Source: Clostridia bacterium (GTDB lineage Bacteria; Bacillota; Clostridia; Oscillospirales; Acutalibacteraceae). From it: a stretch of 64,000 bases of DNA. The notes below the pieces were generated by a model. The model worked only from the letters and a program-made list of their open reading frames with translations, was not told the origin of the DNA and did not search any database. Location: NCBI GenBank assembly GCA_017481865.1, contig JAFUOL010000002.1:161-64160 (forward strand). The letters are read 5' to 3'. The translations under genes and the position numbers were made by a program. Below, one piece after another: positions 28,771 to 64,000 of the stretch (its first letter is position 1; each line of letters starts with the position of its first letter).

Positions 28771-28827
28771 AGTTTTTAGCTCCTTTCGGTAAATTATCTT
28801 AGTTTAAGAGGTGACTGCATTTTTGTC

Positions 28828-28856: not shown

Positions 28857-28868
28857 TATCAGGTAGAT

Positions 28869-28944: not shown

Positions 28945-28945
28945 T

Positions 28946-28980
28946 AAAAATCCCCGATATTTTTCGGGGATTTTTATTTT
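28946..28980 (+). terminator. Rho-independent terminator after tRNA-Thr
   Basis: AAAATCCCCGA / TCGGGGATTTT stem followed by a T-run. Confidence 0.85.
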
Positions 28981-29243: not shown

Positions 29244-29278
29244 TAAAAATGCTCGCTTCAGCTTGACCGAAACGAGCG
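29244..29278 (-). terminator. Terminator after the glycosylation operon
   Basis: Minus strand GCTCGTTTC...GAAGCGAGC stem followed by ATTTTTAT. Confidence 0.6.
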
Positions 29279-29282
29279 TTTA

Positions 29283-29735: not shown

Positions 29736-29736
29736 T

Positions 29737-30093
29737 TTATTTAATTTTCCCTTCCAATTCCCGAATTCTTTGTTCATACAGGGCGCACTTTTGAATCAGT
29801 TTTCTCAAATCAGAATTAAGCTTTGATACAATTGATGTTATCGAAATCAAAATAATGATTAGTATGAAGATGACGGCTGCGAATACAGCATTTACTTCCT
29901 CTACAATTCCTGTGTATTTTAATATAAATGTAATTACACCGGGGAATAAAACTACAAAAAGCATTAAAATGCCGCCGAATATCCAAAGTAGGGTATAACG
30001 CAATTCCAACCGTTTTTTCTTGAGCAGATAAAAAATGCAGAGAAAATATACAGCAATAGCTACTAATAATGTGATTTTTAAATATATGCTCAT
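29737..30093 (-). CDS. Small membrane protein with C-terminal coiled coil, DUF2304-like
   Basis: MSIYLKITLLVAIAVYFLCIFYLLKKKRLELRYTLLWIFGG...; AAAGGAGAAAG SD before ATG 30093. Family name from memory. Confidence 0.55.
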   Translation of the reverse strand: MSIYLKITLLVAIAVYFLCIFYLLKKKRLELRYTLLWIFGGILMLFVVLFPGVITFILKYTGIVEEVNAVFAAVIFILIIILISITSIVSKLNSDLRKLIQKCALYEQRIRELEGKIK

Positions 30094-30094
30094 A

Positions 30095-30796
30095 TCACTT
30101 TCTCCTTTTCTTTGTAAATCTCGCAATAATAATTGCCAAAGACACCTTTATCATATAGTAAAGTGACTTAAAACCGTTGATGGATGAACTACCACCGGTA
30201 CGCTCTTGCATTATTACCGGAACTTCTATCATCCTAAGTCCGTTAATAGCGGTAACGATGAGAGCCTCCGGTTCAGGATAATCTTGCGCATATTCCTTTG
30301 CAAAAATTTCAATACATTTTCGGTTAACGGCTCTGAATCCGCTGGTCACATCTAAAACTCTGTTTCCGGTAAGCAGATATACCAATCCGCTAAGGAAGTT
30401 TATACCCAGCCTTCGCATAGCCGAGGACTGAAAGCCTTCGTTGGTGATAAATCTTGAGCCGATAACAGCATCCGCTTTGTTTTCTATAATCGGAAGTATA
30501 ATGTTTTTGAGATATTCGGGTTTATGCTGACCGTCACCGTCCATCTGAATAGCGATATCATAGCCGTTTTCTAATGCATATAAATATCCTGATTGAACAC
30601 CGCCGCCGATTCCGAGATTTACAGGCAGATTTAGATAATGTGCATTTCGCTCCTTTAGTATCTTTAAGGTTAAATCGGTAGAACAGTCGTTGACTACCAC
30701 ATAATCATACTGCGGATATTCGCTATCCAGCTTGTCCAATAGTGCAGAAATACTTTCCTCTTCGTTGTATGCAGGGATTATAATTAAGATTTTCAT
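30095..30796 (-). CDS. Family 2 glycosyltransferase, GtrB/DPM1-like (polyprenyl-phosphate sugar synthase type)
   Basis: IIIPAYNEEESI, VVNDCSTD, QMDGDGQH. ATG 30796 is preferred over the TTG at 30826. Confidence 0.8.
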   Translation of the reverse strand: MKILIIIPAYNEEESISALLDKLDSEYPQYDYVVVNDCSTDLTLKILKERNAHYLNLPVNLGIGGGVQSGYLYALENGYDIAIQMDGDGQHKPEYLKNIILPIIENKADAVIGSRFITNEGFQSSAMRRLGINFLSGLVYLLTGNRVLDVTSGFRAVNRKCIEIFAKEYAQDYPEPEALIVTAINGLRMIEVPVIMQERTGGSSSINGFKSLYYMIKVSLAIIIARFTKKRRK

Positions 30797-30822
30797 AAGA
30801 CGATTATCATTCCATTTCAATG

Positions 30823-32601
30823 TCAATTATTCGAGAGCTTATAGGCAGCTTCTCCCAAGGCAAGTGAATTTTCCGTGAGATAAGCATTTATAGCATCATC
30901 GCCTTGCATTACTATTAAATAATCATATTCTTTGATGCTGTCTTTTTTGTCAGTCAATTGGGATGGAGAGCAAGCGCTTATAGAGAGGTTCCAAAAAATG
31001 TATCTGCCTGCAAAGTAGTGATATCCTGCATCGCCCTCAACCTGCGAGCCGTATATAAAGCAACTGGCTCCGTCTGGAATTGAATAATCCGATTTGATAT
31101 TTTCCAACAATTGTCGCTGTGAACCCTGATAAGCGTTTGTTTTGATGAATAAATCAGGAACATCGTTTATTTGGGTGAAAAGTATTAAACATGACAGTAA
31201 AATAGCGCTTACACCTACAAAAATATTTTTTCCTTTGTTCATAGCCGAAAGCAGATGTAATAAATATATAATTATAGCTCCTACAATGTAAATAACTACA
31301 GTTTTTTCATATCTTGAATAGGAAGCAAGAACTACAGCTTCATCATATGGCATTGATAATAAATACATAGCGGCAAGAATTGCCATAAAGCCAAAATAAG
31401 CTACCGTTATTCCACCTGTGATAAACAATTCATTCCGTGATTTCTTTTTTAGTACTATTCGTTTTACGGCATATCCGAATAATAAAATTACTGCTACTAC
31501 AATAAGTAAGAACCAAGTTGAGTTCCAAGAAAATAAGCGGTTAAGAAAGTTTATTAAGATTTCTTTTATTTGATCTATGGTTTTATCTTTAAATATATTA
31601 GTGTAATTTTCTAGCGAAACTGTGTGTTTTGAGGAGGCACCGCTTTCAAACACATAATCAACATGACGGCTCCACAGAACAAATACACAAGCAGGTATTC
31701 CGCTATGAATAATCCCCAGTTTAATAAGTCTTGCGAAAGACAGCCTGTTTTTGCTTCGGCAGTCGTACAAAACAGAGAAAAAGAGCAGTAAAGCTGTATT
31801 TAATAACAGCATGATAATACCGCTATTCTTGACAGCCACCAAAAAAATCTGTACCATAAGGCTGACCCAGGCGGCCTTGTAAAGTTTGTCTTTATAGTAA
31901 ATGATTATTGCTAAAGAAGCTAAGCTTAAAACGGAAACCAGCGTATCAACAAGTGGCTCGGCAATAGCCGTATCCTGAGGAGAATTTGCGACAAGGCAAT
32001 AAATGCCGCCGATTATCCCAACAATAATAGCAAAAATATCTAATTTCTTTATAAATGCGATAAAAACACAGAGACAGGATGCTATAAGCAGAGACTGTGC
32101 AAACAAAATCAAATCGTCACCGGTACGACCTAAGAATTTGCAGATAAAGTAAATAAATCCTGCTGAACCTGTGGGATAGCCCTGAAACATAATTAGATCG
32201 GATTTAAAGTTCGGGAGACTATCGGTTTTTAGGATTTCTTTTACAACGGTCAGCCAATGACTGAAAGCATCATAATGAGTGGGTATTTGTCCGTAGAGGC
32301 GGACAGCAAAGCAGGCAACAATTATACTGAAAATTGCCAAGCACAGATAATCTGATTTTTGAAAATCGGTTTTATATCTCCACGGTTTGGATATAAATGT
32401 GCACCCAATACCGCCTAACCATATAAGAAGCACTGTATATGGCATAATATTGAGAATTCCTGCAATGAACATGGCAATACCTATGCCGGACAACGTAATT
32501 ACGGGTGCAAATGCCATATTTATGTTTTTCTTGCGTAAAAAGAAACAGTAGCCTATCAAAGAAACCCATAAAAGAGCAGCTTTAATTATGAATGAAAGCA
32601 T
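30823..32601 (-). CDS. 592-aa polytopic membrane protein with C-terminal extracytoplasmic domain; candidate GT-C-type (GtrC-like) transferase
   Basis: At least 12 hydrophobic helices and a soluble C-terminal domain of about 130 aa. First gene of the GT2/DUF2304/GtrA operon. No family motif recognised. Confidence 0.5.
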   Translation of the reverse strand: MLSFIIKAALLWVSLIGYCFFLRKKNINMAFAPVITLSGIGIAMFIAGILNIMPYTVLLIWLGGIGCTFISKPWRYKTDFQKSDYLCLAIFSIIVACFAVRLYGQIPTHYDAFSHWLTVVKEILKTDSLPNFKSDLIMFQGYPTGSAGFIYFICKFLGRTGDDLILFAQSLLIASCLCVFIAFIKKLDIFAIIVGIIGGIYCLVANSPQDTAIAEPLVDTLVSVLSLASLAIIIYYKDKLYKAAWVSLMVQIFLVAVKNSGIIMLLLNTALLLFFSVLYDCRSKNRLSFARLIKLGIIHSGIPACVFVLWSRHVDYVFESGASSKHTVSLENYTNIFKDKTIDQIKEILINFLNRLFSWNSTWFLLIVVAVILLFGYAVKRIVLKKKSRNELFITGGITVAYFGFMAILAAMYLLSMPYDEAVVLASYSRYEKTVVIYIVGAIIIYLLHLLSAMNKGKNIFVGVSAILLSCLILFTQINDVPDLFIKTNAYQGSQRQLLENIKSDYSIPDGASCFIYGSQVEGDAGYHYFAGRYIFWNLSISACSPSQLTDKKDSIKEYDYLIVMQGDDAINAYLTENSLALGEAAYKLSNN

Positions 32602-51976: not shown

Positions 51977-52816
51977 TCAATATTTCTTATTCTGCAAAGC
52001 TAATTCGGTTTTGTAGATTTCCTGTGCTGCCAGCTTATCTGAATTGACTACAATATATGTATAAATGGAATCGAGTATGGTAAGCTGGGCTATACGTGAG
52101 CTCATGGCAAGTATTGAGTGTTGGGTTTCCTCCGCTCTTGTAAAAAGAGCATAGTCGCATGCCTTTACAATAGGGGAGTTGCCGTAGTTGGTAATGCAGA
52201 CTGTGGTAGCACCGCCTATTTTAGAAAGCTGCAACGCATCCACTATATCCTTAGACGAGCCTGAATGGGATATACCGATAGCTACGCTTTTTCTGTCAAG
52301 GTGGGTGGCGATAATCGCCTGCATATGGTTATCGCAGCATGCCTGAGCATTAAAGCCTAACCTTAAAAATTTATGTGCCGCATCCTGAGCTATGGCGGCG
52401 GAGTTGCCAAGACCGAAAACTATTATCCTTTTGGAGTTCATTACGGCGTTGGCGGTAAGGGCTAACTGCTCGGCGTCCAGAACTGATTCGGTATTGATGA
52501 GGGATACCGATATATCGCTTATACGTTTTTTGAATATGTCAAAACAGCTGTCCTCCTTGGTGATTTCCTTACTTACCGAGGAGGCAGAGCTCATTTCGCC
52601 TGCTATTCCTATTTTAAGGGACTGGTAGCCGTCAAAGCCAAGACGTCTTGCAAAACGTACTACGGTAGCATCACCGCAGCCGCATTTTTCGGCAAAGTCG
52701 CTTATTGATGTGTTTATTATATCCTTAGTGTTTTCGAGGATAAAATCGGCTATTTTTTTCTCACCCGGACCCATTTGGGAACGCATGAATCGTATTTTAT
52801 GAATTATTGATTCCAT
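51977..52816 (-). CDS. MurR/RpiR-family regulator (HTH + SIS domain)
   Basis: ISDFAEKCGCGDATVVRFARRLGFDGY HTH and SIS IIVFGLGNSAAIAQDA. ATG 52816 (GAGGTG SD) is preferred over the ORF-track 52957. Confidence 0.88.
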   Translation of the reverse strand: MESIIHKIRFMRSQMGPGEKKIADFILENTKDIINTSISDFAEKCGCGDATVVRFARRLGFDGYQSLKIGIAGEMSSASSVSKEITKEDSCFDIFKKRISDISVSLINTESVLDAEQLALTANAVMNSKRIIVFGLGNSAAIAQDAAHKFLRLGFNAQACCDNHMQAIIATHLDRKSVAIGISHSGSSKDIVDALQLSKIGGATTVCITNYGNSPIVKACDYALFTRAEETQHSILAMSSRIAQLTILDSIYTYIVVNSDKLAAQEIYKTELALQNKKY

Positions 52817-52830
52817 TAGGCACCTCAAAA

Positions 52831-52845
52831 TGAAAATTATTTTCA
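52831..52845. promoter_or_regulatory. 7-1-7 palindrome in the rpiR/operon spacer; candidate operator
   Basis: TGAAAAT t ATTTTCA, 15 nt upstream of the rpiR start. Confidence 0.3.
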
Positions 52846-52980
52846 TTATTTTAACATATTTTTGGAAAAAGTCAATGGAAATGAAAAAAAATTTCAAAAA
52901 CCTATTGCGAAAATCCGCACATTTTGGTATCGTATAGATGTAACTTAATGTTCTCAATTTTAGCGAAAAGGGGAGTTAAA

Positions 52981-54384
52981 ATGTTTGATTATAAGGTAAA
53001 AATCGGTCTGGTTGCTATGAGACGTAACACCACAGACCGTCCCAGAGGAACTTTTCTTACCTGGTACTCTGCCGAACAGCGTGGAAAGCGTTTCGTAGAT
53101 TACATAGAAAAGAACTTCACCGATGAAAATGTAAGCTTTGTTGATAACAAGGGTATCGGTATCGAGGACTTGGTTTTTGACGATGCTACGGCTAAAGAGG
53201 TTGTAGAGCGTTTCAAAAAGGAAAATGTCGATGCGGTATTTATTATCAACTGTAACTTCGGTAACGAGGAGGCTGCGGCTGATATAGCCGAGGCTCTCGG
53301 AAAGCCCGTGCTTTTATGGGCACCGCTTGATGATGAATATTATGTTGACGGTATGAGACCTACCGATTCCCAATGCGGAATTTTTGGTGTTTCCCGTCAG
53401 ATGCAGCGTTATCACATTCCGTTTTCACATCTGCCCTGCTGCAGAGTTGAAAGCGACGAGTTTAAAGAGGGTCTTGACAGCTTTGTAAGGGTTGTCTGCA
53501 TGGTTAAAAACTTCAAAGGCATGCGCATAGGTCAAGTAGGCGCACGTCCTGCACCCTTCTTCTCGGTTATTTGGAACGAGGGTGAGCTGATGGAGAAGTT
53601 CGGTATCCGTATAGTTCCCATAAATTTTGCCGTTATAGAGCAGAGAATGAAATCTGCACCCGAGCTTTATGCTGATGAGATTGCCGAATATGAGCAGTAT
53701 TTCCTAACCAATTACGAGCTTGACGACCTTACTCCCCAGTACATAAAGCCCATGGCTACAATGGTTGCAATGTATAAGCACCTTTTCGAGGAATTCAACC
53801 TTGACGTAATCTCGGCTGAATGTTGGACAGCAACTCCGATTATGTTCGGCGGTTTGGCACCCTGTGCACTTTACGGTCTGCTAAACGAAATGGGTTACAT
53901 GATTTCCTGCGAAAGCGATATGCACTGCGCTATGACTATGGCACTGCTTAAATGTGCAACTCTCGGTAAAGGCAAGCCCTTGTTCGGTGAATTTACCGTA
54001 AGACACCCCGAAAATAAGAACGCCGAGCTTTTATGGCATTGCGGACCCTTCCCTGTATCCGAAAAAGCAGAGGGTACAAAGGCACGTCTTGTTAACCAGC
54101 GTGCATGGCTTAGAGCTAAGGATGGCGAGTACACTGTAGCCCGTATCGACCAAGAGCATGGCGACTATATGATACTTCCCCTTAAATGTCATACAACCGA
54201 AGGTCCTCAAACTCACGGAACATATCTTTGGGCTGAATTTGAGGATTTACAGGCTATAGAGGATAGACTTATCGACGGTCCTTACATTCACCACTTCGTT
54301 GAAATGGAAGGCGACTACAGGAAAGAAATCAAAGAATTCTGTAAATACTTCCCCAACCTTAAGGTTGATGAGTCTGTTAAATAA
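52981..54384 (+). CDS. L-fucose/L-arabinose isomerase superfamily protein (COG2407-like), substrate unknown
   Basis: 467 aa; VFIINCNFGNEE, PTDSQCGIFG, ISCESDMHCAMT (metal-ligand region). AAGGGGAG SD before ATG 52981. Confidence 0.75.
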   Translation: MFDYKVKIGLVAMRRNTTDRPRGTFLTWYSAEQRGKRFVDYIEKNFTDENVSFVDNKGIGIEDLVFDDATAKEVVERFKKENVDAVFIINCNFGNEEAAADIAEALGKPVLLWAPLDDEYYVDGMRPTDSQCGIFGVSRQMQRYHIPFSHLPCCRVESDEFKEGLDSFVRVVCMVKNFKGMRIGQVGARPAPFFSVIWNEGELMEKFGIRIVPINFAVIEQRMKSAPELYADEIAEYEQYFLTNYELDDLTPQYIKPMATMVAMYKHLFEEFNLDVISAECWTATPIMFGGLAPCALYGLLNEMGYMISCESDMHCAMTMALLKCATLGKGKPLFGEFTVRHPENKNAELLWHCGPFPVSEKAEGTKARLVNQRAWLRAKDGEYTVARIDQEHGDYMILPLKCHTTEGPQTHGTYLWAEFEDLQAIEDRLIDGPYIHHFVEMEGDYRKEIKEFCKYFPNLKVDESVK

Positions 54385-54417
54385 ATTTTGTAAAATTTTT
54401 TAAAGGAGATATAAACT

Positions 54418-55854
54418 ATGCAAATCCAAATGAACGAATTTCTGTTCTCAATGATTCTGACAGAGCTTGAAGACGCTGTTGGCGTTGAAAACTGCTCCAC
54501 CCGTCAGATTGACAAGGTAACTCACAGCGTTGACTACTACTGGCTGTCACGTATGTGGGCTGACCGTGGCTGCCATATGCCCGAGGCTGACATCGTTGTA
54601 TGTCCCGAGGATGCAACACAGGTTTCCAAGGTACTTAAAATCGCTAACTACTACAAGCTCCCCGTAACTACTTGGGGTGCAGGCGGCGGCACACAGGGAG
54701 GTGCTATTCCGGTTTGCGGCGGTATTATTCTCGACACCAAGAGAATGAACAAGATTTACGAAGTTAATACCGATGCTATGTACATAGAGTGCGGTACAGG
54801 TGCTATCTACAAGCACATTGAGTGGGCTGCAAACGAGGTTGGTAAGGCTACAATGCACTATCCCTCTTCACTCTGCTGCTCTACAGTAGGCGGTTTCTTA
54901 GCTCACAGAGGTATCGGTGTTGTTTCTACTAAGTACGGCAAAATCGATGACATGGTTCTCCAGATGGAGGTTGTATTACCTAACGGTGATATCATCAATA
55001 CCTGTTCTGCTCCTAAGCATGCTGCAGGTCCTGACCTTAACCAGATATTCATCGGTTCTGAGGGTACTTTAGGTATCATTACAAAGGCTCAGATCCGTAT
55101 TTTCGACCAGCCTGAGGACAGACGCTTCCGTGGTTTCTTATTCCAGGATATGTCAGGTGCTTTCAAGGCTGCACGTGAGCTTCTCCAGAAGTTCAAGCCC
55201 TCTGTTATGCGTCTTTATGACGAGGCTGAAACTGCTTCTCTTATTAAGAAAATCGTTGGTGTTGAGCGCAAGGGCGCATTCATGAACGTTGCTTATGAAG
55301 GCGTTAAGGAAATGGTAGACGTTGAGGAGAAAATCCTTCTCGAAACCTTTGCTAAGTACGGCGCTGAGGACTTAGGCAGCGAGTACGGCGAGAAGTGGTG
55401 GAAAGAAAAGCTTACCTTCTTCTATCCCGGTCACATGATGGATATACCCCAGTGCTTCGGTACTATGGATACAATAGCTCCTTACGGCAAAATTGAGGAA
55501 ATCTACTGGGCTATGAAGGAAGCTATCGAAACCAACTTCCCGCAGGCTAAGTTTATCGCTCACTTCTCACACTGGTATGAGTGGGGCGCAATGGTTTACG
55601 ACCGCTTTATTGTTGACGGTAAAGACGTTCCTCAGGATCCGGTTGAGGCACTTCGTCTCCATCAGGCTATTTGGACCTGCGGTGTAAGAGCTGCTCTTGC
55701 TCACGGCGGTGTTGTTAACGACCACCACGGCGTTGGTATAAAGCTTGGCCGTCTTATGAAGGAACAGTACGGTCCCGCTATGCAGGTATTTGAAAATCTT
55801 AAGAAAACACTTGACCCGAACGGCATTATGAATCCGTTTAAGCTCGGTCTGTAA
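54418..55854 (+). CDS. FAD-linked oxidase family dehydrogenase (GlcD / alkyl-DHAP-synthase-like)
   Basis: PCMH-type FAD domain PEADIVVCPEDATQVSKVLKIA...VTTWGAGGGTQGGAIP; C-terminal HHGVGIKLG. Confidence 0.8.
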   Translation: MQIQMNEFLFSMILTELEDAVGVENCSTRQIDKVTHSVDYYWLSRMWADRGCHMPEADIVVCPEDATQVSKVLKIANYYKLPVTTWGAGGGTQGGAIPVCGGIILDTKRMNKIYEVNTDAMYIECGTGAIYKHIEWAANEVGKATMHYPSSLCCSTVGGFLAHRGIGVVSTKYGKIDDMVLQMEVVLPNGDIINTCSAPKHAAGPDLNQIFIGSEGTLGIITKAQIRIFDQPEDRRFRGFLFQDMSGAFKAARELLQKFKPSVMRLYDEAETASLIKKIVGVERKGAFMNVAYEGVKEMVDVEEKILLETFAKYGAEDLGSEYGEKWWKEKLTFFYPGHMMDIPQCFGTMDTIAPYGKIEEIYWAMKEAIETNFPQAKFIAHFSHWYEWGAMVYDRFIVDGKDVPQDPVEALRLHQAIWTCGVRAALAHGGVVNDHHGVGIKLGRLMKEQYGPAMQVFENLKKTLDPNGIMNPFKLGL

Positions 55855-55875
55855 TTTATAAGGGAGGATTTAATT

Positions 55876-56961
55876 ATGATAATGTCAGAAAAATGTAAAC
55901 AGCATGTTGATTCCTGCCGTTTCTGCTGGATGTGCCACCACATCTGCCCTATCGGTAACGCTACCGGTCAGGAAAGAAATACAGCAAGAGCAAGAGCTCT
56001 CGGAATTTCACTTGTAAACCGTGAAGCAATGGGTCTTGAAGAAATTATGGACAATATTTATGAGTGCTGCACCTGCGGTGCTTGCGTACACGACTGCACC
56101 ACCGGCTGGAACCCTGTAATGTTCACTAAGGAAACCAGACTTCAGGCAGCTCTTGACGGTAAGACACCTGATTATATTGCTGCACTTGTAAGCAACTGTT
56201 TAGAAACAGGCAACGCTTACGGCAAGACCGAAATCTGCTCTGATTTAGCAGCAGCTGTTAAGGCTCACTCTGCTAAGAAGGATACTCTCCTTCTCTTAGG
56301 TGTTGATGCTAAATACATGGTTTGCGAGCAGGCTTTAAAGGCTATTAAGGTTCTCGAAAAAGCAGGTGTTGACTTTACCGTTCTCGATAGCGAACCCGCT
56401 TCCGGCGCACAGCTCGACTTCCTTATCGGTGCCGCTAACGAAACCAAGGAACAGATGGTAGCCTGTGCTAAGGCTCTCGGCGAATACAAGACTGTAGTTG
56501 TATACGATCCTGATGATGCTAAGGCTATCAAGCAGACATATAAAGAGTACGGCATAGATGTTGCTGCTGACGTTGTTACATACACAAGCTTTGTTGCAGG
56601 TCTTGTAAAGGACGGCAAGCTTGCAGCTAAAAACAGTGGCAAGGCTGTTGTATTCCAGGATCCTTATCAGTTGGCACGTGACCTTGAGGAAACCGAGGAA
56701 GCCCGTGAAGTAGTTAAGGCTTATGCAAATCTTTCCGAAATGCTCCTTAACCGTGGCGAGACCGTTTGGGCTGGTAATATCCTTATGGCTCAGTATATGC
56801 CCAAGGTTATCAACAAGGTAGCTGAAAGAAGAATATTCAATGCTACAAGCATCGGTGCTAACGCTATCGTTACCGTTTCTGTAGCTGAATACGCTTCTTT
56901 AAAAGCAGTAGCTAAGGATGTTGAAATTCTCTCACTCGAAGATTTAATCTTAGGAGAATAA
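55876..56961 (+). CDS. (Fe-S)-binding protein, GlcF/GlpC-like partner of the flavoprotein
   Basis: Two Cys clusters, CRFCWMCHHICP and CCTCGACVHDC, followed by a Cys-poor domain of about 250 aa. Confidence 0.7.
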   Translation: MIMSEKCKQHVDSCRFCWMCHHICPIGNATGQERNTARARALGISLVNREAMGLEEIMDNIYECCTCGACVHDCTTGWNPVMFTKETRLQAALDGKTPDYIAALVSNCLETGNAYGKTEICSDLAAAVKAHSAKKDTLLLLGVDAKYMVCEQALKAIKVLEKAGVDFTVLDSEPASGAQLDFLIGAANETKEQMVACAKALGEYKTVVVYDPDDAKAIKQTYKEYGIDVAADVVTYTSFVAGLVKDGKLAAKNSGKAVVFQDPYQLARDLEETEEAREVVKAYANLSEMLLNRGETVWAGNILMAQYMPKVINKVAERRIFNATSIGANAIVTVSVAEYASLKAVAKDVEILSLEDLILGE

Positions 56962-56965
56962 GTAA

Positions 56966-57808
56966 ATGTTAGTTAATTTAGATTATGTATTGAATCTTGC
57001 CGAAAAAGGCAACTTTGCAATTCCTGCTTTCAATGTGTACAATATGGAAACCGTAATGGGTGTTTTGAAGGCAGCAGAGGAAACCAAGGCTCCTATCATA
57101 ATGCAGGTTTATCCCCGTCTTATGAAGGAGGAGACAGGTTACTTCCTCTCTCCCGTAATTCTTGCCGCCGCTAAGAGAGCAAGCGTTCCGGTATGCTTCC
57201 ACCTTGACCACGGCCCCTCCGAGCTTGAAACTACACGTTCTATCCGCTACGGAGCCACAGGCATTATGCTGGACGGTTCTACACTTCCTTTTGAGGAGAA
57301 TATTGCTCTTACAAAGAAGGTTGTTGAAACCTGCAAGTATGTAGACGTTCAGGTTGAGGGTGAATTAGGTCACGTAGGTACTACTAAGGACGCTGAAATG
57401 GACGAATTCACTACTGCCGAGGACGCTAAGAAATTCGTTGAGGAAACAGGCGTTGCCTGTCTTGCTGTTGCAGTAGGTACTGCTCACGGTAAGTACACTA
57501 AGCCTCCGAAGCTTGATATTGAGCGCATTAAGGCAATACGTGAAGCTACTAACAATACAGCTCTTGTACTTCACGGCGGTTCGGGTGTTCCCGACGAGGA
57601 AATTAAAAAGGCAGTAGCTGCCGGTATCCGCAAAATGAACTTTGCTACCGATATTTGCTATGCTTTCCTTGATTGCTGTCTCGACGAGCTTCAAAAGCCC
57701 GACCGTACAGTAGCAGTAGATAACTTCATGAAGAAGCCTATAGATGCTGTAAAGGATTTCTGCATTTCAAGAATTAAACTCGTTGGTGCCGATGGCAAAG
57801 CGAAGTAA
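56966..57808 (+). CDS. Class II ketose-bisphosphate aldolase (FBA_II family; IolJ/GatY/KbaY-like)
   Basis: VCFHLDHG, GELGHVG, ALVLHGGSGVPDEE. Confidence 0.85.
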   Translation: MLVNLDYVLNLAEKGNFAIPAFNVYNMETVMGVLKAAEETKAPIIMQVYPRLMKEETGYFLSPVILAAAKRASVPVCFHLDHGPSELETTRSIRYGATGIMLDGSTLPFEENIALTKKVVETCKYVDVQVEGELGHVGTTKDAEMDEFTTAEDAKKFVEETGVACLAVAVGTAHGKYTKPPKLDIERIKAIREATNNTALVLHGGSGVPDEEIKKAVAAGIRKMNFATDICYAFLDCCLDELQKPDRTVAVDNFMKKPIDAVKDFCISRIKLVGADGKAK

Positions 57809-57823
57809 TCGGAGAATTTGATT

Positions 57824-58735
57824 ATGAGTAAGATAGTAGGAATAGGTGCTAATGTTTTTGACACCCTTTACAATATCCCTACTTACCCAACAGAAGATAC
57901 TAAAATGAGAGCGACCGCCAGCAAAACCGCTGGCGGCGGTCCTGTTGCTACAGGTCTTGTAGCGGCTCAGAAGTTGGGTGAGGAAACAGCATACATTGGT
58001 GTTTTATCCGATGATAACGGTGGTAAGTTCTTAAAAGAGGATTTTGAGAAATACGGTGTTGAAACAAACCTTATAGAAATAAAATCGGGTTACCGCTCCT
58101 TTGCATCGGTGCTTTGGCTTTGTGCTGACAGTGCAACCCGTACCTGTGTGTTTGATAAGGGAGATTTGCCGCCATTGGTACTTAACGATGCTCAAAAGCA
58201 GGCCATTTGCGATGCCGAGCTTTTAATGGTAGACGGTAATGAAATGGATGCGGCAGTAGAGGCTGCAAAAATAGCGAAAGCAAACGGAACCAAGGTGCTT
58301 TATGATTGTGGCGGTCTCTACGAGGGTGTAGAACGCCTTTTGGCATATACGGACATTATGATACCTTCAGAGGAATTCTCCTTAGGCCACACAGGCTGTG
58401 CTACTGCCGAGGAAGCCGCTAAAAAGCTTTATGAAATGTACTCCCCCGAGGTAGTAGTAATCACACAGGGCAAGCGTGGCGGAATTATTTTTGACGGTAA
58501 GGAAGTTGTTTCCTACCCCATTTATCCTGCTAAGGTTGTTGACTCCAACGGCTCGGGTGATGTGTTCCACGGAGCATTTGCCGCAGGTGTAGTTAAAGGG
58601 TACGATTATCTTAAATGCTGTCATTTCTCCAGTGCCGTATCGGGTCTTAAGTGTACCGGTGTAGGCGCAAGAGAAAGTGTACCGAGCTTCGATACAACTG
58701 AAAAATATTTAAAGGAGAACGGTTATGACTTATAA
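57824..58735 (+). CDS. PfkB-family sugar(-phosphate) kinase
   Basis: GGGPVATG and the C-terminal DSNGSGDVFHGAF signature. Confidence 0.85.
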   Translation: MSKIVGIGANVFDTLYNIPTYPTEDTKMRATASKTAGGGPVATGLVAAQKLGEETAYIGVLSDDNGGKFLKEDFEKYGVETNLIEIKSGYRSFASVLWLCADSATRTCVFDKGDLPPLVLNDAQKQAICDAELLMVDGNEMDAAVEAAKIAKANGTKVLYDCGGLYEGVERLLAYTDIMIPSEEFSLGHTGCATAEEAAKKLYEMYSPEVVVITQGKRGGIIFDGKEVVSYPIYPAKVVDSNGSGDVFHGAFAAGVVKGYDYLKCCHFSSAVSGLKCTGVGARESVPSFDTTEKYLKENGYDL

Positions 58736-59513
58736 GAGACATTGGGACTATACTAAAGAAGGCTTTGTAAAAATTTACGAAACCAAAAACAGTGCTTGTA
58801 ATTTAATGGAAGTTTACGGTCTTATGCTTAAAGCAGGCAATTCTTATAATTGCGAGACCGGCAACATGGAATACGGTATTACCATTCTTGACGGTACCTG
58901 CGATATTATAGGCGAGGGCTTTGATTTCAAGTCTGTAGGTAAGCGAAAGAATGTATTTGAGGGTAACGCAACTGCTGTTTATATCCCTAAGGGTGAGAAA
59001 TTCACCGTTAAGGCTGTAAGCGATGTAAGAATAGTAATCACCGCATGCCCTGCGGCTGAATATTTCGACCCCTATGTGGTAAATCCTGAGGATGTTATCG
59101 TTAAAACCTTTGGCAAGCCCGGCTTTGAGCGTGAGGTTCACTTTATTATGGACGAACGCTTTGCAGGCAACCGTGTTTATATCGGTGAAAACTACATTAA
59201 GGGTAACGAGTGGACCGGCTTCCCCGGACACAAGCATGACGAAAATACCGAGAATGAGAAGTTTGCCGAGGAAATTTATTATTTCGAATTCGATAAGGAG
59301 ACCGGTTACGGTATTCAGCAGGTTTACTCTGCAGACCTCCTTATTGACGAAGCATACACCACAAGAAACGGTGACTTTGTAGAAATACCCAAGGCATATC
59401 ACCCCGGTACCGTAGCCCCCGGCTATACAGGTTATTTGCTTTGGCTTATGAGCTGCGATGAGCGTGGTCTCGTAAGCACTGCCGACCCCGAACAGGCTTG
59501 GCAAAATAAGTAA
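58725..59513 (+). CDS. KduI/IolB-family cupin isomerase (5-deoxy-glucuronate isomerase-like)
   Basis: FPGHKHDENTENEKFAEEIYYFEF metal/cupin motif; 262 aa. Overlaps the kinase gene by 11 nt. Confidence 0.7.
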   Translation: MTYKRHWDYTKEGFVKIYETKNSACNLMEVYGLMLKAGNSYNCETGNMEYGITILDGTCDIIGEGFDFKSVGKRKNVFEGNATAVYIPKGEKFTVKAVSDVRIVITACPAAEYFDPYVVNPEDVIVKTFGKPGFEREVHFIMDERFAGNRVYIGENYIKGNEWTGFPGHKHDENTENEKFAEEIYYFEFDKETGYGIQQVYSADLLIDEAYTTRNGDFVEIPKAYHPGTVAPGYTGYLLWLMSCDERGLVSTADPEQAWQNK

Positions 59514-59580
59514 AATGTATTATAATAGAGATATGTCTTTTGGCATATCTCTATTATATTAAAAAGTGAGTTGTTTTTTT

Positions 59581-60444
59581 ATGATTACAATAAAAAATGA
59601 TTATTTAACCGCAAAAATCAATGAGGTCGGCGCTGAGCTTAAAAGCCTTGTTTGCAATGATACCCAGTATATCTGGACAGGTGACGAAAGGTTTTGGGCT
59701 GGCTCCGCTCCGTTACTTTTCCCCATTTGCAGCGGACTTAAGGATGACGAATACTACCTTGACGGTAAAAAATATACTCTGCAAAAGCACGGTTATGCCC
59801 GTTTTTGCAAATTTGAGGTTGAAAATCAGGTGGAGGACAGTGTAACATTTTTGCTTTGTTCAAACGAGGAAAGCTTAAAGCAGTTCCCCTTCCGTTATGA
59901 ACTGCGTGTTACATACACCCTTGAAAATAAGACCTTAAAGGTTAAATATGACGTTAAAAATCTATCGGATGATACTATGTACTTCTCAATCGGCGCTCAC
60001 GAGGGCTACTACTGTCCCGAGGGAATAGAGGAATATGATGTTATTCTGCCCGAGGCTGAAACCCTTGATTCTACCGTGCTTGAAGGTAATGTTTTAGGTA
60101 ATAACAAGGTGCGTATTATAGAAAACAGCAATAGGATTGCTTTAAAGTATGACTATTTCGCCGTTGATGCACTTGTTTTTAAGGATATGAAGGCAAGAAG
60201 TGCAGTTCTTAAAAACCGAAACAACGGCAAAGCGGTAAAGGTTACCTTTGAGGGATGTGATTACTTCCTGCTTTGGACTAAACCCGATGCACCCTATATT
60301 TGCCTTGAACCGTGGTGCGGTATTTCCGATAATAAAGACACCGATAAGAACTTCAAAACCAAAGAGGGTATAAGACAAATAGCCGCAGGCGGTAATTTTG
60401 TAAATGAACACTCTATTGAGGTTTTGGACAACGGAGGTAAATAA
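59581..60444 (+). CDS. Aldose 1-epimerase (mutarotase-fold) family protein
   Basis: LLFPICSGL, FSIGAHEGYY, CLEPWCG. ATG 59581 is preferred over GTG 59566. Confidence 0.8.
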   Translation: MITIKNDYLTAKINEVGAELKSLVCNDTQYIWTGDERFWAGSAPLLFPICSGLKDDEYYLDGKKYTLQKHGYARFCKFEVENQVEDSVTFLLCSNEESLKQFPFRYELRVTYTLENKTLKVKYDVKNLSDDTMYFSIGAHEGYYCPEGIEEYDVILPEAETLDSTVLEGNVLGNNKVRIIENSNRIALKYDYFAVDALVFKDMKARSAVLKNRNNGKAVKVTFEGCDYFLLWTKPDAPYICLEPWCGISDNKDTDKNFKTKEGIRQIAAGGNFVNEHSIEVLDNGGK

Positions 60445-61367
60445 TGCAGGTTTTTTCAGCAACATTAAATCAAATGCTGGTGCTGTTTATATTTATGGCA
60501 CTGGGATTTTTCCTCAATAAAAAACGGCTTTTGCCGCTGGACGATTCGGTAGTGCTTTCCAAGCTTGAAACCTATGCCTTTGTGCCCTGCTTGGTATTCA
60601 ATACCTTTTATAAGTACTGTACCGTTGAAAATTTCCGCCAGAAATGGGTGTATATCCTTTACGGTGCGGCGATAATGCTGGTTTCCTTAATTATAGGAAT
60701 TTTCTTAGCTAAGATTTTTGCAAAGGACAACTATCTGCAAAAGATATATACATATTCCTTTGCGGTGGCTAATTTCAGCTTTATGGGTAATGCGGTAGTG
60801 CTTGGCATATTCGGTGAGGATGTATTATTCGACTATATGATATTCACCCTGCCTTTGAATTTGTATGTTTATTCTTACGGCACAGCTTCACTTGTTCCTC
60901 AAAAGGAGGGTAAAAAGTTCTCCTTTAAGGTATTCATAAATCCTATATTTATATCCCTTTTATTAGGCGCTGTATTTGGACTTTTACAGATACCTCTGCC
61001 GAAATTTATAACTACTGCCGTATCCTCGGCAGGCGCATGTATGTCACCCTTGGCAATGCTCCTTACAGGCTTTGTAATAGGGGACTACAGCCTTAAAAAG
61101 CTGGCAAGTGAAAAAAAGGTTTACTTGGCATCTATTATAAGACTTATAATTTTACCTACAATATTTATACTTTTTTTGAAGGCACTTAATACGGATATTG
61201 CCATAATCCGTGTGGCTCTATGCGCTACCGCAATGCCTTTGGGTCTTAATACTGTCGTATTCCCTGCGGCTTACGGGGGAGACACTACACCCGGAGCCAG
61301 TATGGCACTTATATCACACCTTATGTCTATTATAACCATTCCGATAATGTTTGCTTTAATACTGTAA
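60444..61367 (+). CDS. AEC (auxin efflux carrier) family permease
   Basis: 307 aa with about 10 TM helices. TAATG overlap with the upstream gene. Confidence 0.75.
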   Translation: MQVFSATLNQMLVLFIFMALGFFLNKKRLLPLDDSVVLSKLETYAFVPCLVFNTFYKYCTVENFRQKWVYILYGAAIMLVSLIIGIFLAKIFAKDNYLQKIYTYSFAVANFSFMGNAVVLGIFGEDVLFDYMIFTLPLNLYVYSYGTASLVPQKEGKKFSFKVFINPIFISLLLGAVFGLLQIPLPKFITTAVSSAGACMSPLAMLLTGFVIGDYSLKKLASEKKVYLASIIRLIILPTIFILFLKALNTDIAIIRVALCATAMPLGLNTVVFPAAYGGDTTPGASMALISHLMSIITIPIMFALIL

Positions 61368-61380
61368 AGGAGAAAGAGAA

Positions 61381-62850
61381 ATGAAATATCTTTTAGGTAT
61401 AGATTTCGGCGGCGGAGCCTCAAAGGCTACCCTTATTGATACTAACGGCAATATAATTGCCGAAAATACCGTAGAATACCCAACCCTTTATCCCGAAATA
61501 GGCGCCTGCGAGCAGGACCCTAAAGACTGGATAAATGCCCTTTGCGAAAACTCGAAGGCTTTACTCAAAAAAAGCGGTATAAATAATTCCGATATTTTGG
61601 CTGTTGCCATTGATTCGGCTACCCATACCTCCCTTGTATGCGATGAAAATTTCAGCCCACTGCGTAATGCTATACATTGGACAGATACCCGTTCACGTGC
61701 TCAGGCGGATAAATTAAGGGAGGAAATGGGAGATAAAATCTTTAAAAAGACCTTCCATAAGCCTGATACTATCTGGACTTTGCCCCAGCTTTTGTGGCTT
61801 AAAGAGAAAGAGCCCGAAACCTTTAAAAAGATAAGCTACATATTTTTTGAAAAGGATTATATCCGTTATTATCTTACAGGTGTTTTCTGTACCGACCATA
61901 TAGAGGCAGAGGGCAGTATGCTTTTCGACTGCAACCGTATGGAGTGGGACAGCGAACTTTGCGAAATCGCAGGTATAACCGAGGAAATGCTCCCCAAAGT
62001 AGTGAAGCCTACCGATATTATAGGTAAGATTACCGCTGATGCCGCAAAGGCTACGGGACTTAAGGAGGGCACCGACGTTATTTGCGGCACTACCGATACT
62101 GTAATGGAGGTTTTCGCTTCAGGTGCAGTTAAAAAAGGTGATGTTACCGTAAAATTAGCTACAGCCGGCAGAATTTGCGTTATAACCGATAAGCCTTATC
62201 CTGACAGACACCTTGTAAACTATTCCCATATAGCGGATGGTATGTGGTACCCAGGTACTGCAACAAAATCCTGCGCCGCCTCCTACCGCTGGTACAGAGA
62301 TACCTTCGGCGGAGAGTATAAGGAGCTGGACGGCGGTGCCGCCGAAATACCCATAGGCTGTGACGGTCTTATATTCCACCCCTATTTAAACGGTGAGCTT
62401 ACTCCTTATGCCGACCCCATGCTTTGCGGCAGCTTTACGGGAGTACGTGCTACACACACAAAGGCTCACTTTACCCGTGCGGTACTGGAGGGTGTAGCTT
62501 ATTCTCTGCTTGACAGTAAAATGTATCTCGATTCACTTTACATTCCTTATGACAGCGTTGCTACCGCTATAGGCGGCGGCACAAAGGGTAAGCTTTGGAG
62601 ACAGATGATTGCCGACACCTTGGGAATTGCCCTTAAAACCACCGAAAGCAGCGACTCCTCCTTCGGCTCTGCCATGCTTGCAGGTATAGCGGTAGGCGTG
62701 TTTAAGAATGCCGAGGATGCAGTTAAAAAGTGCGTAAAGCAGGTGGATATAACCTATCCTAACGCATACAACACTGAAAAATACCGTAAGGTTTACGAGA
62801 CCTATAAAAAAATCCACGACGCTTTAGCACCTATTTATCACGAAAGGTAA
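61381..62850 (+). CDS. FGGY-family carbohydrate kinase (xylulokinase/ribulokinase-like), substrate unknown
   Basis: LLGIDFGGGASKATL and ATAIGGGTKGKLWRQMIADTLG. Confidence 0.88.
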   Translation: MKYLLGIDFGGGASKATLIDTNGNIIAENTVEYPTLYPEIGACEQDPKDWINALCENSKALLKKSGINNSDILAVAIDSATHTSLVCDENFSPLRNAIHWTDTRSRAQADKLREEMGDKIFKKTFHKPDTIWTLPQLLWLKEKEPETFKKISYIFFEKDYIRYYLTGVFCTDHIEAEGSMLFDCNRMEWDSELCEIAGITEEMLPKVVKPTDIIGKITADAAKATGLKEGTDVICGTTDTVMEVFASGAVKKGDVTVKLATAGRICVITDKPYPDRHLVNYSHIADGMWYPGTATKSCAASYRWYRDTFGGEYKELDGGAAEIPIGCDGLIFHPYLNGELTPYADPMLCGSFTGVRATHTKAHFTRAVLEGVAYSLLDSKMYLDSLYIPYDSVATAIGGGTKGKLWRQMIADTLGIALKTTESSDSSFGSAMLAGIAVGVFKNAEDAVKKCVKQVDITYPNAYNTEKYRKVYETYKKIHDALAPIYHER

Positions 62851-62856
62851 ATACCT

Positions 62857-64000
62857 ATGAAGATACTTGTTTGTATCCGTCAGGGACTTGACGGCGAGAT
62901 AAACCCCTTTGATGCCTGTGCTTACGAAGCCGCCTTGCAGATAAAGGGAGCAGAGGTTACCGTTATGAGTATGGGACCTCAAAATGCTAAGGACTTTTTG
63001 CTCCGCTTAACAAGACTCGGTGCTAAAAAGGCAATATTGCTGTCCGACAAAGCCTTTGCAGGGGCAGATACCATTGCTACGGCTTATACCTTGTCTCTGG
63101 CGGTTAAAAAGCTCAGCCCCGACCTTATTTTCTGCGGAAGACAGACCCTTGTAGGGGATACTGCGCAGACAGGACCGATGCTTTCGGTTTATGCCGAAAC
63201 CTCACTTATAACCAATGTTATGAGCATTGACGAAATAGGGGAGAGTATTACCTGCACTACCAGAGATATGGGCATACAGACGGCAAAGCTGCCTGCCCTA
63301 ATTACGGTAGAGCGTATAAATACCTTAAGACTTCCCAGTATAATGTCAAAACTCGGCGAGGTTGAGGTTTGGAGTGCCGAGGATATCGGCGCAGACATAG
63401 AAAAATGCGGTCTTAAAGGCTCGCCGACACGTGTGCTTAAAACCTATGAAAACTATTCAGGCAAAAGAAAATGCAAGCTTATAACCGCCGAGGAATTGGA
63501 CGGAGTTATAAACGAGGCGCTTAAAAAGAATAGGGAAAAGGTATCGGTTGCTAAAAGCGATATTAAGCTTAACCGTGTGTTCATCGTAGGTGACGAGCCT
63601 TACAGCTTTGCCGAGACGGTAAGTGATGATATAACTGTTCTTGAAAAGACCGATGCTGAGACTATAGCAGAAACAATCAAAGCCCAAAAACCGAATGCGG
63701 TCTTGTGGGCGAGTGATGCCTGGAGCAAGGAAACTGCCGCTAAGGTAGCGGCAATGGTTGACTTAGGTCTTTGTGCTGATTGTACCACCCTTGAAACCGA
63801 CGGTGAACAGCTAATAATGTACCGTCCCGCCCTTTCGGGAAGTATAATTGCCAAGATAGTAAGCCTTACAAAGCCTGCTATGGCAACAGTAAGAACCGCA
63901 AAGTCGGGCGGAGATATAGTAGTAGCCGCAGGCTGGGGCGCTAAGGACAGCCTTGATACCGTAAAAGCCTTCGCTCAAAGAATAGGTGCTGATATTGCAA
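62857..64000 (+). CDS. Electron transfer flavoprotein with EtfB-like and EtfA-like halves fused in one ORF; 3' end outside window
   Basis: My own translation from ATG 62857 is stop-free to nt 64000. N-half: MKILVCIRQ..., MSMGP, LLSDKAFAGADT, CGRQTLVGDTAQTGP, LKGSPTRV. C-half: LGLCADCTTL, MYRPALSG, AMATVR, VVAAGWG, RIGADIA. Absent from the ORF track because it has no stop. Confidence 0.8.
   Translation, partial: MKILVCIRQGLDGEINPFDACAYEAALQIKGAEVTVMSMGPQNAKDFLLRLTRLGAKKAILLSDKAFAGADTIATAYTLSLAVKKLSPDLIFCGRQTLVGDTAQTGPMLSVYAETSLITNVMSIDEIGESITCTTRDMGIQTAKLPALITVERINTLRLPSIMSKLGEVEVWSAEDIGADIEKCGLKGSPTRVLKTYENYSGKRKCKLITAEELDGVINEALKKNREKVSVAKSDIKLNRVFIVGDEPYSFAETVSDDITVLEKTDAETIAETIKAQKPNAVLWASDAWSKETAAKVAAMVDLGLCADCTTLETDGEQLIMYRPALSGSIIAKIVSLTKPAMATVRTAKSGGDIVVAAGWGAKDSLDTVKAFAQRIGADIA

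Follow-up and report, generated by a model that had tools for sequence, protein, structure and literature searches.

We show that the ten close-packed plus-strand genes running from position 52981 to the end of the window (the whole 64,000-nucleotide stretch of DNA analysed here, contig JAFUOL010000002.1, from an uncultured Acutalibacteraceae/Clostridia metagenome-assembled genome, or MAG) are a real, tightly conserved operon of many uncultured gut and rumen Clostridia, as confirmed by the recurrence of the gene set in related genomes. A PfkB-family sugar kinase and a class II aldolase form the hub of this operon, an isomerase of an uncharacterised family (Iso1) is one feeder of that hub, and a flavoenzyme, an iron-sulfur (Fe-S) protein, an electron-transfer flavoprotein (Etf), a cupin isomerase and an FGGY-family kinase make up a second, inseparable block. 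By its gene content this is a carbohydrate catabolic operon with isomerase-kinase-aldolase logic, and it may contain a new type of enzyme, an Etf-coupled sugar-phosphate flavoenzyme that resembles AGPS, the alkyl-dihydroxyacetone-phosphate (alkyl-DHAP) synthase. A sequence-only reading of the window had described a divergent MurR/RpiR regulator opposite ten packed genes and had assigned their domains, and the Pfam and NCBIfam (June 2026) scans from which our own domain calls were made, with bit scores set against curated cutoffs, agree with it on both. The minus-strand regulator gene and the ten plus-strand genes opposite it all lie at the following coordinates in the list of open reading frames (ORFs):

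51977 to 52816, minus strand: MurR/RpiR-family regulator, 279 aa; Pfam HTH_6 and SIS; gene call of the same length in identical contigs (a longer ORF with a TTG start is not the gene)
52829 to 52847, no strand: 9-1-9 palindrome AATGAAAAT-T-ATTTTCATT, 13 nt from the RpiR start codon; candidate RpiR operator
52981 to 54384, plus strand: Iso1, predicted aldose-ketose isomerase of the FucI/AraA superfamily, uncharacterised family, 467 aa; weak SftI match
54418 to 55854, plus strand: AGPS-like flavoenzyme of the VAO family ("GlcD-like"), 478 aa; Pfam FAD_binding_4 and FAD-oxidase_C
55876 to 56961, plus strand: soluble 2x[4Fe-4S] protein with a Cys-poor, GlpC/LdhH-like C-terminal domain, 361 aa; Pfam Fer4_8
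56966 to 57808, plus strand: class II (FBA-family) aldolase, predicted ketose-1-phosphate (monophosphate) aldolase, 280 aa; F_bP_aldolase 293 bits
57824 to 58735, plus strand: PfkB-family sugar kinase of the ribokinase/ketohexokinase/YihV-like branch, predicted ketose 1-kinase, 303 aa; Pfam PfkB
58725 to 59513, plus strand: KduI/IolB-family cupin isomerase, 262 aa; Pfam KduI 208 bits
59521 to 59558, no strand: perfect inverted repeat with 15-bp arms and an 8-nt loop, TATAATAGAGATATG...CATATCTCTATTATA, within the 67-nt gap between cupin and epimerase
59581 to 60444, plus strand: aldose 1-epimerase (mutarotase) family protein, accessory, 287 aa; Aldose_epim 92 bits
60444 to 61367, plus strand: AEC-family permease, accessory, 307 aa; Mem_trans 111 bits
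61381 to 62850, plus strand: FGGY-family kinase, XylB/GntK-like, 489 aa; Pfam FGGY_N/C
62857 to 64000 (would end at about 64233), plus strand: fused EtfB-EtfA electron-transfer flavoprotein, 458 aa; Pfam ETF (two stretches) and ETF_alpha

A one-genome-per-species scan with Iso1 found relatives in 419 genomes, and every window protein was sought in every locus of the set that we analysed, which included the best 80 of these 419. The best 80 loci all come from MAGs or uncultured-bacterium bins of Acutalibacteraceae, Oscillospiraceae, Ruminococcaceae and Faecousia, the sample source, where named, being human or animal gut, including ruminant, and Iso1 is 80-92% identical across these species-level loci. 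The flavoenzyme, Fe-S protein, aldolase, PfkB kinase, cupin, FGGY kinase and Etf occur together and in conserved order in 54 distinct loci, joined by Iso1 in 51 of the 54, and the gene-neighbourhood co-occurrence that had been proposed as a check on the operon is thus borne out. The corresponding protein clusters at 90% identity hold 1,700-2,900 member sequences, mainly from public metagenome assemblies (Logan, ENA and NCBI MAGs), and Iso1 has 2,230 homologous clusters, the best 120 of which are all at least 80% identical. Other genes are accessory: among the 54 complete loci DUF4867 is present in 29, the epimerase in 17, the AEC permease in 14 and a NagA plus NagB-like pair in 7, and PMI-like and FAD_oxidored genes are occasional extras. 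When genes beside the operon are counted as well as those inside it, NagA plus NagB-like pairs occur in 9 loci, and PMI-like genes occur in 3. The AEC permease, the only transporter named in the sequence-only reading, is not a defining part of the locus, since it occurs in only 14 of 54 loci, and the operon of most loci carries no transporter gene at all.

How the operon is put together can be read from its variants. Loci L048, L049, L054 and L056 carry Iso1, aldolase and PfkB, with or without DUF4867, as their only members and lack the cupin; a glycoside hydrolase gene of family GH30 leads in two of them. In L090 the flavoenzyme, Fe-S protein, cupin, FGGY kinase and Etf form one run, followed by Iso1, aldolase and PfkB as another and then by a GH35 gene, and the order in the divergent locus L093 is GH30-Iso1-aldolase-epimerase-DUF4867-PfkB, then flavoenzyme-Fe-S-EtfB-EtfA-cupin-FGGY. 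Two further loci, L091 and L092, have the five-gene block together with aldolase and PfkB and lack Iso1, as does L089, in which a divergent pair of Gfo/Idh/MocA and AP_endonuc_2 genes is present. PfkB and aldolase are therefore the constant centre, to which either Iso1 or the five-gene block is added in some loci and, in most, both. In the loci seen the block is always accompanied by aldolase and PfkB; the cupin travels with the flavoenzyme, Fe-S protein, FGGY kinase and Etf in every locus, including L090-L093, and the FGGY gene always adjoins those for cupin, Etf, flavoenzyme and Fe-S protein. It is these reduced and rearranged loci that define PfkB and aldolase as the hub, Iso1 as one feeder and the five-gene block as a separate unit.

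In L072, Iso1 stands beside an FSA/TalC-type aldolase in place of the kinase and class II aldolase. This locus looks like a transaldolase/FSA-type counterpart of the kinase-aldolase route, in parallel to the division of sulfoglycolysis into an Embden-Meyerhof-Parnas form with kinase and aldolase (sulfo-EMP) and a transaldolase/FSA form (sulfo-TAL). The surrounding region (L072:5294-19434) holds two OPA-like MFS transporters, a second FucI-family isomerase (448 aa), the FSA/TalC-type aldolase and Iso1, together with M20 deacylase, GH3, AraC, NagB-like, NagA and GH123 genes. The NagA/NagB-like and PMI-like inserts and the varied GH neighbours of the operon show a tie to glycan scavenging; a shared glycan source was sought in the flanking GH30, GH35, GH2, GH31, GH4, GH78, GH3 and GH123 genes, and none emerged from them.

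The flavoenzyme is 84-96% identical in every locus except the most divergent one, L093 (62%), and such constraint is unusual for a peripheral catabolic enzyme. In L090-L092 it is 84-86% identical though the Fe-S protein, Etf and PfkB are only 43-48% identical, and in closer species it reaches 90-96%. Two irregularities were noted for the same gene. In L088 it is broken into two ORFs (217 and 259 aa; L088:5714-7143) and a transposase gene lies between DUF4867 and FGGY (L088:12643-13206), which suggests a decaying operon copy or an assembly error. In addition, the 90%-identity cluster of the flavoenzyme includes members of 263-264 aa, one of them named "5-deoxy-glucuronate isomerase", which look like a clustering artefact merging the adjacent cupin gene.

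Among the hub enzymes and their feeder, Iso1 has no Pfam match, its PDB sequence search gave nothing meaningful, and its sole NCBIfam match is a weak one to the sulfoquinovose isomerase SftI (NF048012; 103.9 bits against a cutoff of 700) over residues 71-456. On this alignment Iso1 is homologous to the SftI/FucI superfamily over nearly its full length. Its family is small, falling into about four full-length clusters when grouped at 50% identity, with 158 representatives at E<=1e-30 and generic names throughout, and an AlphaFold2 model built from an alignment of 10 sequences at least 80% identical had a mean pLDDT of 59.5, too poor for a fold search. For the PfkB kinase the top PDB match is sulfofructose kinase YihV (1.6e-30), and ribokinase and ketohexokinase rank behind it. 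YihV binds the sulfonate through K27, R138 and N109; the corresponding elements in 6-phosphosugar kinases are a TR motif and an RRS triad (PMC8006165). At the YihV triad positions (K27/R138/N109) the operon kinase reads K27/N139/D111, invariant in 61 orthologues. It scores 97.5 bits with the IolC model TIGR04382 (cutoff 300) and higher, 114, with the ribokinase model; with the hexose-phosphate kinase model TIGR03168 it reaches 50.5 of 216.4 over a partial stretch, and with the tagatose-6-phosphate kinase model NF010033 16.6 of 469. These residues and scores suggest that it phosphorylates C1 of a ketose bearing neither phosphate nor sulfonate.

The nearest structures to the aldolase are AgaY (best), SqiA (8q57/8q58) and YdjI (1.8e-51). 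With YdjH, YdjI forms in E. coli a comparable pair of PfkB kinase and class II aldolase without a known physiological substrate, although the YdjG/J/L dehydrogenase context of that pair is not matched in the operon; YdjI reportedly prefers long-chain ketose phosphates with a carboxylate. In fructose-bisphosphate (FBP) and tagatose-bisphosphate (TBP) aldolases an Arg from the partner subunit contacts the distal phosphate, and SqiA has Ala257 at the same position (PMC10665668). The operon aldolase has Asp252 there ("DPRYY" of AgaY and "DPRKF" of 7ncc align to "VAVDNF"), a residue invariant in 62 orthologues, and the description of this enzyme as a bisphosphate-type aldolase is not supported on that account. 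It lies above the broad subfamily model TIGR00167 (255.7 vs 215.6) and below every specific FBA or tagatose-bisphosphate equivalog. The aldolase would thus be expected to act on a ketose monophosphate with a neutral tail, a conclusion of moderate strength because the second phosphate-binding Arg could not be aligned.

In the second block, the top PDB matches of the flavoenzyme are alkyl-DHAP synthases (1e-40), ahead of mitochondrial D-lactate dehydrogenase (1e-35) and LctD (7qh2_C, 1.4e-27), and against the glcD model it scores 189.5 of 567.9. The AGPS residues R419, Y578, H616 and H617, located via the PDB point-mutant chains 4bc7 (R419H) and 4bca (Y578F), have as equivalents R265, Y394, H436 and H437, all invariant; the AGPS His615-617 loop reads D435-H436-H437, so that two of its three His are retained. 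The His/His/Glu metal triad of the lactate dehydrogenase LDHD, positioned by alignment and in the mouse enzyme presumably numbered H398/H405/E442, aligns to His382, Tyr394 and His436, which are invariant or nearly so in 62-64 orthologues. We conclude from these alignments that the site is AGPS-like and would not be a classical 2-hydroxy-acid site, which disfavours the 2-hydroxy acid that the sequence-only reading had offered as one possible substrate. An AGPS-like site suggests a ligand of the -CO-CH2-OPO3 (DHAP-like) type and, by analogy, possibly covalent flavin chemistry. The likeness has its limits: the match starts at AGPS residue 137 (584-residue chain) or 206 (658-residue chain) and only about 55 residues of the flavoenzyme precede it, so that the N-terminal region of AGPS is without counterpart, and the Fe-S and Etf partners imply a net electron transfer that is foreign to AGPS. 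No lipid genes occur in the sugar-enzyme context of the flavoenzyme.

The Fe-S protein has eight invariant Cys in two CxxCxxCxxxC motifs, lacks the CCG cysteines and has no hydrophobic or membrane segment; its NCBIfam matches to TfrB, DsrK, GlpC and LdhH are weak and all far under cutoff. Its top PDB matches, designed PPR repeat proteins, were rejected as spurious, no matched stretch passing by itself. The Etf keeps the motif CGRQtl.GDTaQtGP, which we take to resemble that of bifurcating EtfB. In L093 (8368-10043) the Etf is unfused, with an EtfB of 257 aa and an EtfA of 301 aa, which makes the EtfB-EtfA fusion a derived trait of the main clade. The cupin slot is held by either of two paralogous types, one of which is the window copy; this scores 199.7 with the IolB model TIGR04378 (cutoff 205), and the alternative type, which most other loci have, reaches 221.8. 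Even at 43% identity, relatives of the window type stand in the same operon type, and an origin of the window cupin as a stray substitute taken over from a typical iol operon was therefore rejected; at 31% identity there is a relative that is simply a KduI with KduD as its neighbour. The FGGY kinase is marginally over the cutoff of the XylB model TIGR01312 (395.6 against 380.25), reaches 209.9 of 912 with the E. coli-type XylB model and 162.6 of 590 with the GlpK model, and has the putative gluconate kinase 3gbt and xylulokinases as top PDB matches; no xylose isomerase is present in the window operon or the related loci.

Taken together, we favour, tentatively and at somewhat less than even probability, a catabolic operon for a neutral sugar family in which two branches converge on a ketose-1-phosphate that is split into DHAP and a neutral aldehyde. 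In the first branch the free aldose would be anomerised by the mutarotase, a step in which the DUF4867 protein of relatives may also act, and converted by Iso1 to the ketose; the YihV/ketohexokinase-like PfkB would phosphorylate this at C1, and the aldolase would cleave the ketose-1-phosphate to DHAP and a non-phosphorylated, non-sulfonated aldehyde. In the second branch the FGGY kinase would phosphorylate a compound related to that sugar but more reduced, in the simplest case the alditol, the AGPS-like flavoenzyme would oxidise the carbon beside the phosphorylated one to give a -CO-CH2-OPO3 (DHAP-like) end, and the cupin would shift the product to the isomer accepted by the aldolase. The two electrons would pass via the 2x[4Fe-4S] protein to the Etf, from which they may reach NAD+ with the aid of reduced ferredoxin, by analogy with the lactate dehydrogenase complex Ldh-EtfAB. 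The earlier proposal that a GlcD/AGPS-like flavoenzyme with an Fe-S partner oxidises a reduced substrate and delivers the electrons to Etf remains the best reading of the redox genes.

Both halves of the second branch have precedents. A kinase is paired with a flavin dehydrogenase in GlpK with GlpABC and, in Brucella, in EryA (FGGY) with EryB; the EryB product, L-3-tetrulose-4-phosphate, has a -CO-CH2OP end, and in both systems the product carries a keto group next to the phosphorylated carbon. The operon shares with them the combination of FGGY kinase and flavoprotein dehydrogenase, and its Fe-S protein is weakly GlpC-like; however, its dehydrogenase is VAO/AGPS-like and not of the GlpA/GlpD type, its acceptor would be Etf and not quinone, and its FGGY kinase is not GlpK-like. 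In Ldh-EtfAB (PDB 7qh2) a VAO-type dehydrogenase works with Etf at about -190 mV. This complex (LctBCD of Acetobacterium woodii) likewise combines a gene for an FAD dehydrogenase of the VAO/GlcD superfamily with a neighbouring Etf in a strict anaerobe, and in our set the VAO-type dehydrogenase gene is adjacent or near-adjacent to Etf and co-conserved with it in 54 loci. Ldh-EtfAB could plausibly serve as a template for the passage of electrons at about -190 mV to NAD+. The operon differs from Ldh-EtfAB in that its flavoenzyme carries AGPS-type residues and no His/His/Glu metal site, a 2x[4Fe-4S] protein is encoded separately, EtfB and EtfA are mostly fused into one short protein, and the setting is a sugar operon. 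It is possible, although we advance this with clear reserve, that the GlcD-like protein is the first of a new group of Etf-coupled sugar-phosphate flavoenzymes and that hub and block constitute a new and widespread route by which uncultured Oscillospirales of gut and rumen ferment a sugar or polyol without a known anaerobic pathway. An active site of the AGPS type would then apply covalent or carbanion flavin chemistry to an alditol-phosphate or a ketose-1-phosphate, with electron flow through the dedicated 2x[4Fe-4S] protein to the compact, possibly confurcating EtfBA fusion.

Several observations weigh against the two-branch proposal. The direction of the second branch is derived from logic, and a block that acts on the aldehyde released by the aldolase would give the same co-occurrence pattern. 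AGPS itself is non-redox, so that its conserved residues are no proof of a dehydrogenase; the bifurcating character of the Etf is presumed only from sequence motifs; and the FGGY kinase, being over the XylB cutoff, might use a ketose rather than an alditol. Furthermore, the assignment of the aldolase comes from one residue position, the second phosphate-binding Arg of class II FBP aldolases being unalignable, the NagA/NagB-like and PMI-like inserts in some operons point to hexose-6-phosphate chemistry and fit poorly, and the absence of a transporter gene from most operons is unaccounted for in the scheme.

The closest competitor in terms of the distribution data, unlikely in our view yet deserving of serious attention, places the five-gene block downstream of the aldolase: the cupin would isomerise the released aldehyde (for example L- or D-glyceraldehyde, lactaldehyde or a C4 aldose) to a hydroxy-ketone, the FGGY kinase would phosphorylate this, and flavoenzyme, Fe-S protein and Etf would convert it to a central metabolite. 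The co-occurrence data fit this arrangement equally well, since the block is never found without aldolase and PfkB in the loci seen, and in the reduced loci the aldehyde could simply be reduced or excreted, which is how E. coli deals with sulfolactaldehyde (PMC8006165). Joint action of cupin and FGGY kinase would yield X-CH2-CO-CH2-OP, the scaffold bound by AGPS. In addition, the substrate of IolB is an aldehyde unable to form a pyranose, like small hydroxy-aldehydes. However, a route from glyceraldehyde would finish at DHAP once the kinase has acted and leave no role for a dehydrogenase, a route from lactaldehyde needs the hydroxylation of acetol phosphate at a redox potential that by our own estimate is too high for Etf-NAD+ coupling, and L091 and L092, which lack Iso1, would still require an upstream source of ketose. 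A 6-deoxyhexose/lactaldehyde route via acetol phosphate was set aside for the same thermodynamic reason, being implausible for an NAD+-linked Etf on an estimate of our own that was not computed.

The remaining alternatives, namely sulfoglycolysis, an inositol-like route and a bisphosphate route of the tagatose type, each fail at least one defining feature. The last of these, which we consider improbable, would be a hexose-6-phosphate/ketose-1,6-bisphosphate pathway of the tagatose or galactitol/N-acetylgalactosamine type, in which the FGGY kinase makes the 6-phosphate and PfkB the 1-phosphate, the aldolase yields DHAP and glyceraldehyde 3-phosphate, and the flavoenzyme oxidises a hexitol phosphate. 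It would account for AgaY as the best aldolase structure, for the NagA/NagB-like and PMI-like genes counted above and for the GH35, GH2 and GH123 neighbours, and SftI is described in the literature as also isomerising glucose 6-phosphate and fructose 6-phosphate, but the distal-phosphate Arg of the aldolase is an invariant Asp, PfkB is not of the LacC/FruK type by the two scores given above (NF010033 and TIGR03168), and the reduced loci with Iso1, aldolase and PfkB have no FGGY kinase for the first phosphate. Lower still in probability is a module akin to the lower myo-inositol pathway, with IolB, IolC and IolJ acting in that order on an acid sugar like 5-deoxyglucuronate, a bisphosphate-type aldolase, and other steps in place of IolG, IolE and IolD. 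The gene content invites the comparison: the operon shares with that pathway a KduI/IolB cupin, a PfkB kinase and a class II FBA-family aldolase, IolJ of Bacillus subtilis being an aldolase of this family and IolC a PfkB kinase, and also the chemistry of aldehyde to ketol to ketol phosphate to DHAP plus aldehyde. Most loci have a cupin that scores above the IolB cutoff (221.8 against 205), with the window copy just short of it at 199.7; organic anions are often the cargo of AEC permeases; and L089 has its Gfo/Idh/MocA and AP_endonuc_2 pair. Nevertheless, the operon kinase is not IolC by score (97.5 against 300), the AEC permease is accessory, the invariant D111 of the kinase and D252 of the aldolase would be unfavourable to a distal carboxylate, and, with the L089 pair as exception, no domains of the IolG, IolE, IolD or IolA type occur in the window or nearly all related loci. 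Above all, Iso1, aldolase and PfkB occur cupin-free and the cupin segregates with the redox block; because it does not co-segregate with PfkB and aldolase, the earlier reading of an IolJ/IolC/IolB functional module is undone. A sugar that is anionic at C6, such as a uronate, was likewise set aside in view of the invariant Asp in the kinase and aldolase pockets.

A new variant of sulfo-EMP, which would take sulfoquinovose via sulfofructose and sulfofructose phosphate (SFP) to DHAP and sulfolactaldehyde and use the redox block to metabolise the latter, we regard as very improbable despite a shared logic and parts that are partly homologous. Sulfo-EMP and sulfo-EMP2 are composed of a YihS- or SftI-type isomerase, YihV, a YihT or SqiA aldolase, the YihR mutarotase and SftX/DUF4867, and the operon system has an SftI-related isomerase for which SftI is the only family match, a kinase with YihV as top structure, an aldolase matching the SFP aldolases 8q57/8q58, a mutarotase and, in relatives, DUF4867; moreover, Acutalibacteraceae and Oscillospiraceae are prominent rumen sulfoquinovose degraders according to the literature. 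In contrast, Iso1 reaches only 104 of the 700 bits required by the SftI model, the triad with which YihV recognises the sulfonate is replaced by an invariant K-N-D, and the extra five-gene block of redox, isomerase and kinase functions is found in no sulfoquinovose pathway. Neither the window operon nor the accessory clusters of related loci contain a sulfoquinovosidase, a sulfolactaldehyde reductase or dehydrogenase or a sulfonate exporter, most DUF4867 proteins lie in non-sulfo "aldose/ketose" neighbourhoods, and a 2026 review of sulfoquinovose pathways names no Etf, IolB or FGGY component. Sulfoquinovose itself was rejected as substrate on the sulfonate triad, the absent accessory genes and the score cutoffs.

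In the two-branch proposal, transcription would be controlled by RpiR, or by AraC in other species; among the 54 complete loci RpiR is present in 29 and an AraC-type regulator takes its place in 20. The shared spacer contains the 7-1-7 palindrome of the sequence-only reading, although as the core of the longer 9-1-9 repeat (52829-52847). This core, TGAAAAT-N-ATTTTCA, is kept at the same offset from the RpiR start in most RpiR-type loci, is also present in L039, L040, L050, L052, L065, L088 and L090, where RpiR is only 48-72% identical, and persists even where the flavoenzyme gene, not Iso1, is the first gene. Because it recurs at a fixed offset beside a divergent RpiR, it is more than chance and a credible candidate for the RpiR operator, through which control in RpiR-type loci would probably act, with a sugar phosphate as likely effector.

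From Iso1 through Etf the gene junctions measure 33, 21, 4, 15, -11, 67, -1, 13 and 6 nt. The overlap at 58725/58735 and the TAATG at 60442-60446 had been placed correctly; the reported spacing of 0-35 nt describes all other measured junctions (33 nt at most), with the gap between cupin and epimerase (67 nt, or 52 nt with a GTG start) as the sole long one, and a Shine-Dalgarno-like motif stands upstream of all operon genes but the epimerase, where no clear one is seen, so that the claim of one for each gene holds for the others. The inverted repeat in this gap (59521-59558) is overlapped by a promoter-like match, TTGGCA-17-TATAAT, at 11 of 12 positions, and the hairpin may be an internal terminator or attenuator, a promoter, or the seam of an insertion of epimerase and AEC genes. 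Extension of the contig past position 64000, which had been recommended, was possible with sequence-identical metagenome contigs: these give the full 458-aa Etf (L001:11477-12853), which would end at about 64233 and is the final gene of the operon; beyond it lie a hairpin resembling a bidirectional terminator and a convergent gene for a GDSL lipase.

The view that no described pathway fits the locus is upheld, in that literature, NCBIfam and source names yield generic labels only. The NCBI names are "hypothetical protein", "FAD-binding oxidoreductase", "(Fe-S)-binding protein" and "5-deoxy-glucuronate isomerase", no specific NCBIfam (June 2026) model exists for Iso1, flavoenzyme, Fe-S protein or Etf, and no paper with this gene combination was found in the open-access literature. 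There, DUF4867 appears in sulfoquinovose papers or in an unrelated Clostridium genetics study, and the DUF4867 neighbourhood table of a JBC 2025 paper has one entry, A0A7V7AB73, with exactly this Pfam set, which is not discussed in that paper. The operon is common in uncultured gut and rumen Oscillospirales and every component is annotated generically; where current annotation calls its proteins "5-deoxy-glucuronate isomerase", "xylulokinase" or "fructose-bisphosphate aldolase", it probably misleads. Solving it would give substrate and niche for many uncultured fibre- or glycan-associated Clostridia and a function for a new isomerase family and possibly DUF4867, and a possible new Etf-dependent AGPS-like dehydrogenase bears on quinone-free oxidations near -190 mV in strict anaerobes.

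Outside the operon, the 20 other window ORFs that were scanned are housekeeping genes and, as the sequence-only reading had noted for the window, contain no domains of the IolG, IolE, IolD or IolA type. The segment at 28001-32000 has a G+C content of 0.36-0.37 against about 0.42-0.46 elsewhere, includes a 592-aa ORF (30823-32601, minus strand) without a Pfam match and may be a horizontally acquired island. At 492-2372 (plus strand) a 626-aa ORF combines EamA transporter repeats with GHMP-kinase N and C domains and is either an unusual fusion or two genes joined by the mechanical ORF call. Finally, about 2.2-6.6 kb beyond the window end (L001:14794-19197) lie an AraC regulator gene, a gene for a 1,467-aa dockerin-bearing protein and a GH2 gene, and the dockerin-bearing protein and GH2 place the host among Ruminococcus-like Clostridia of the cellulosome/amylosome type.

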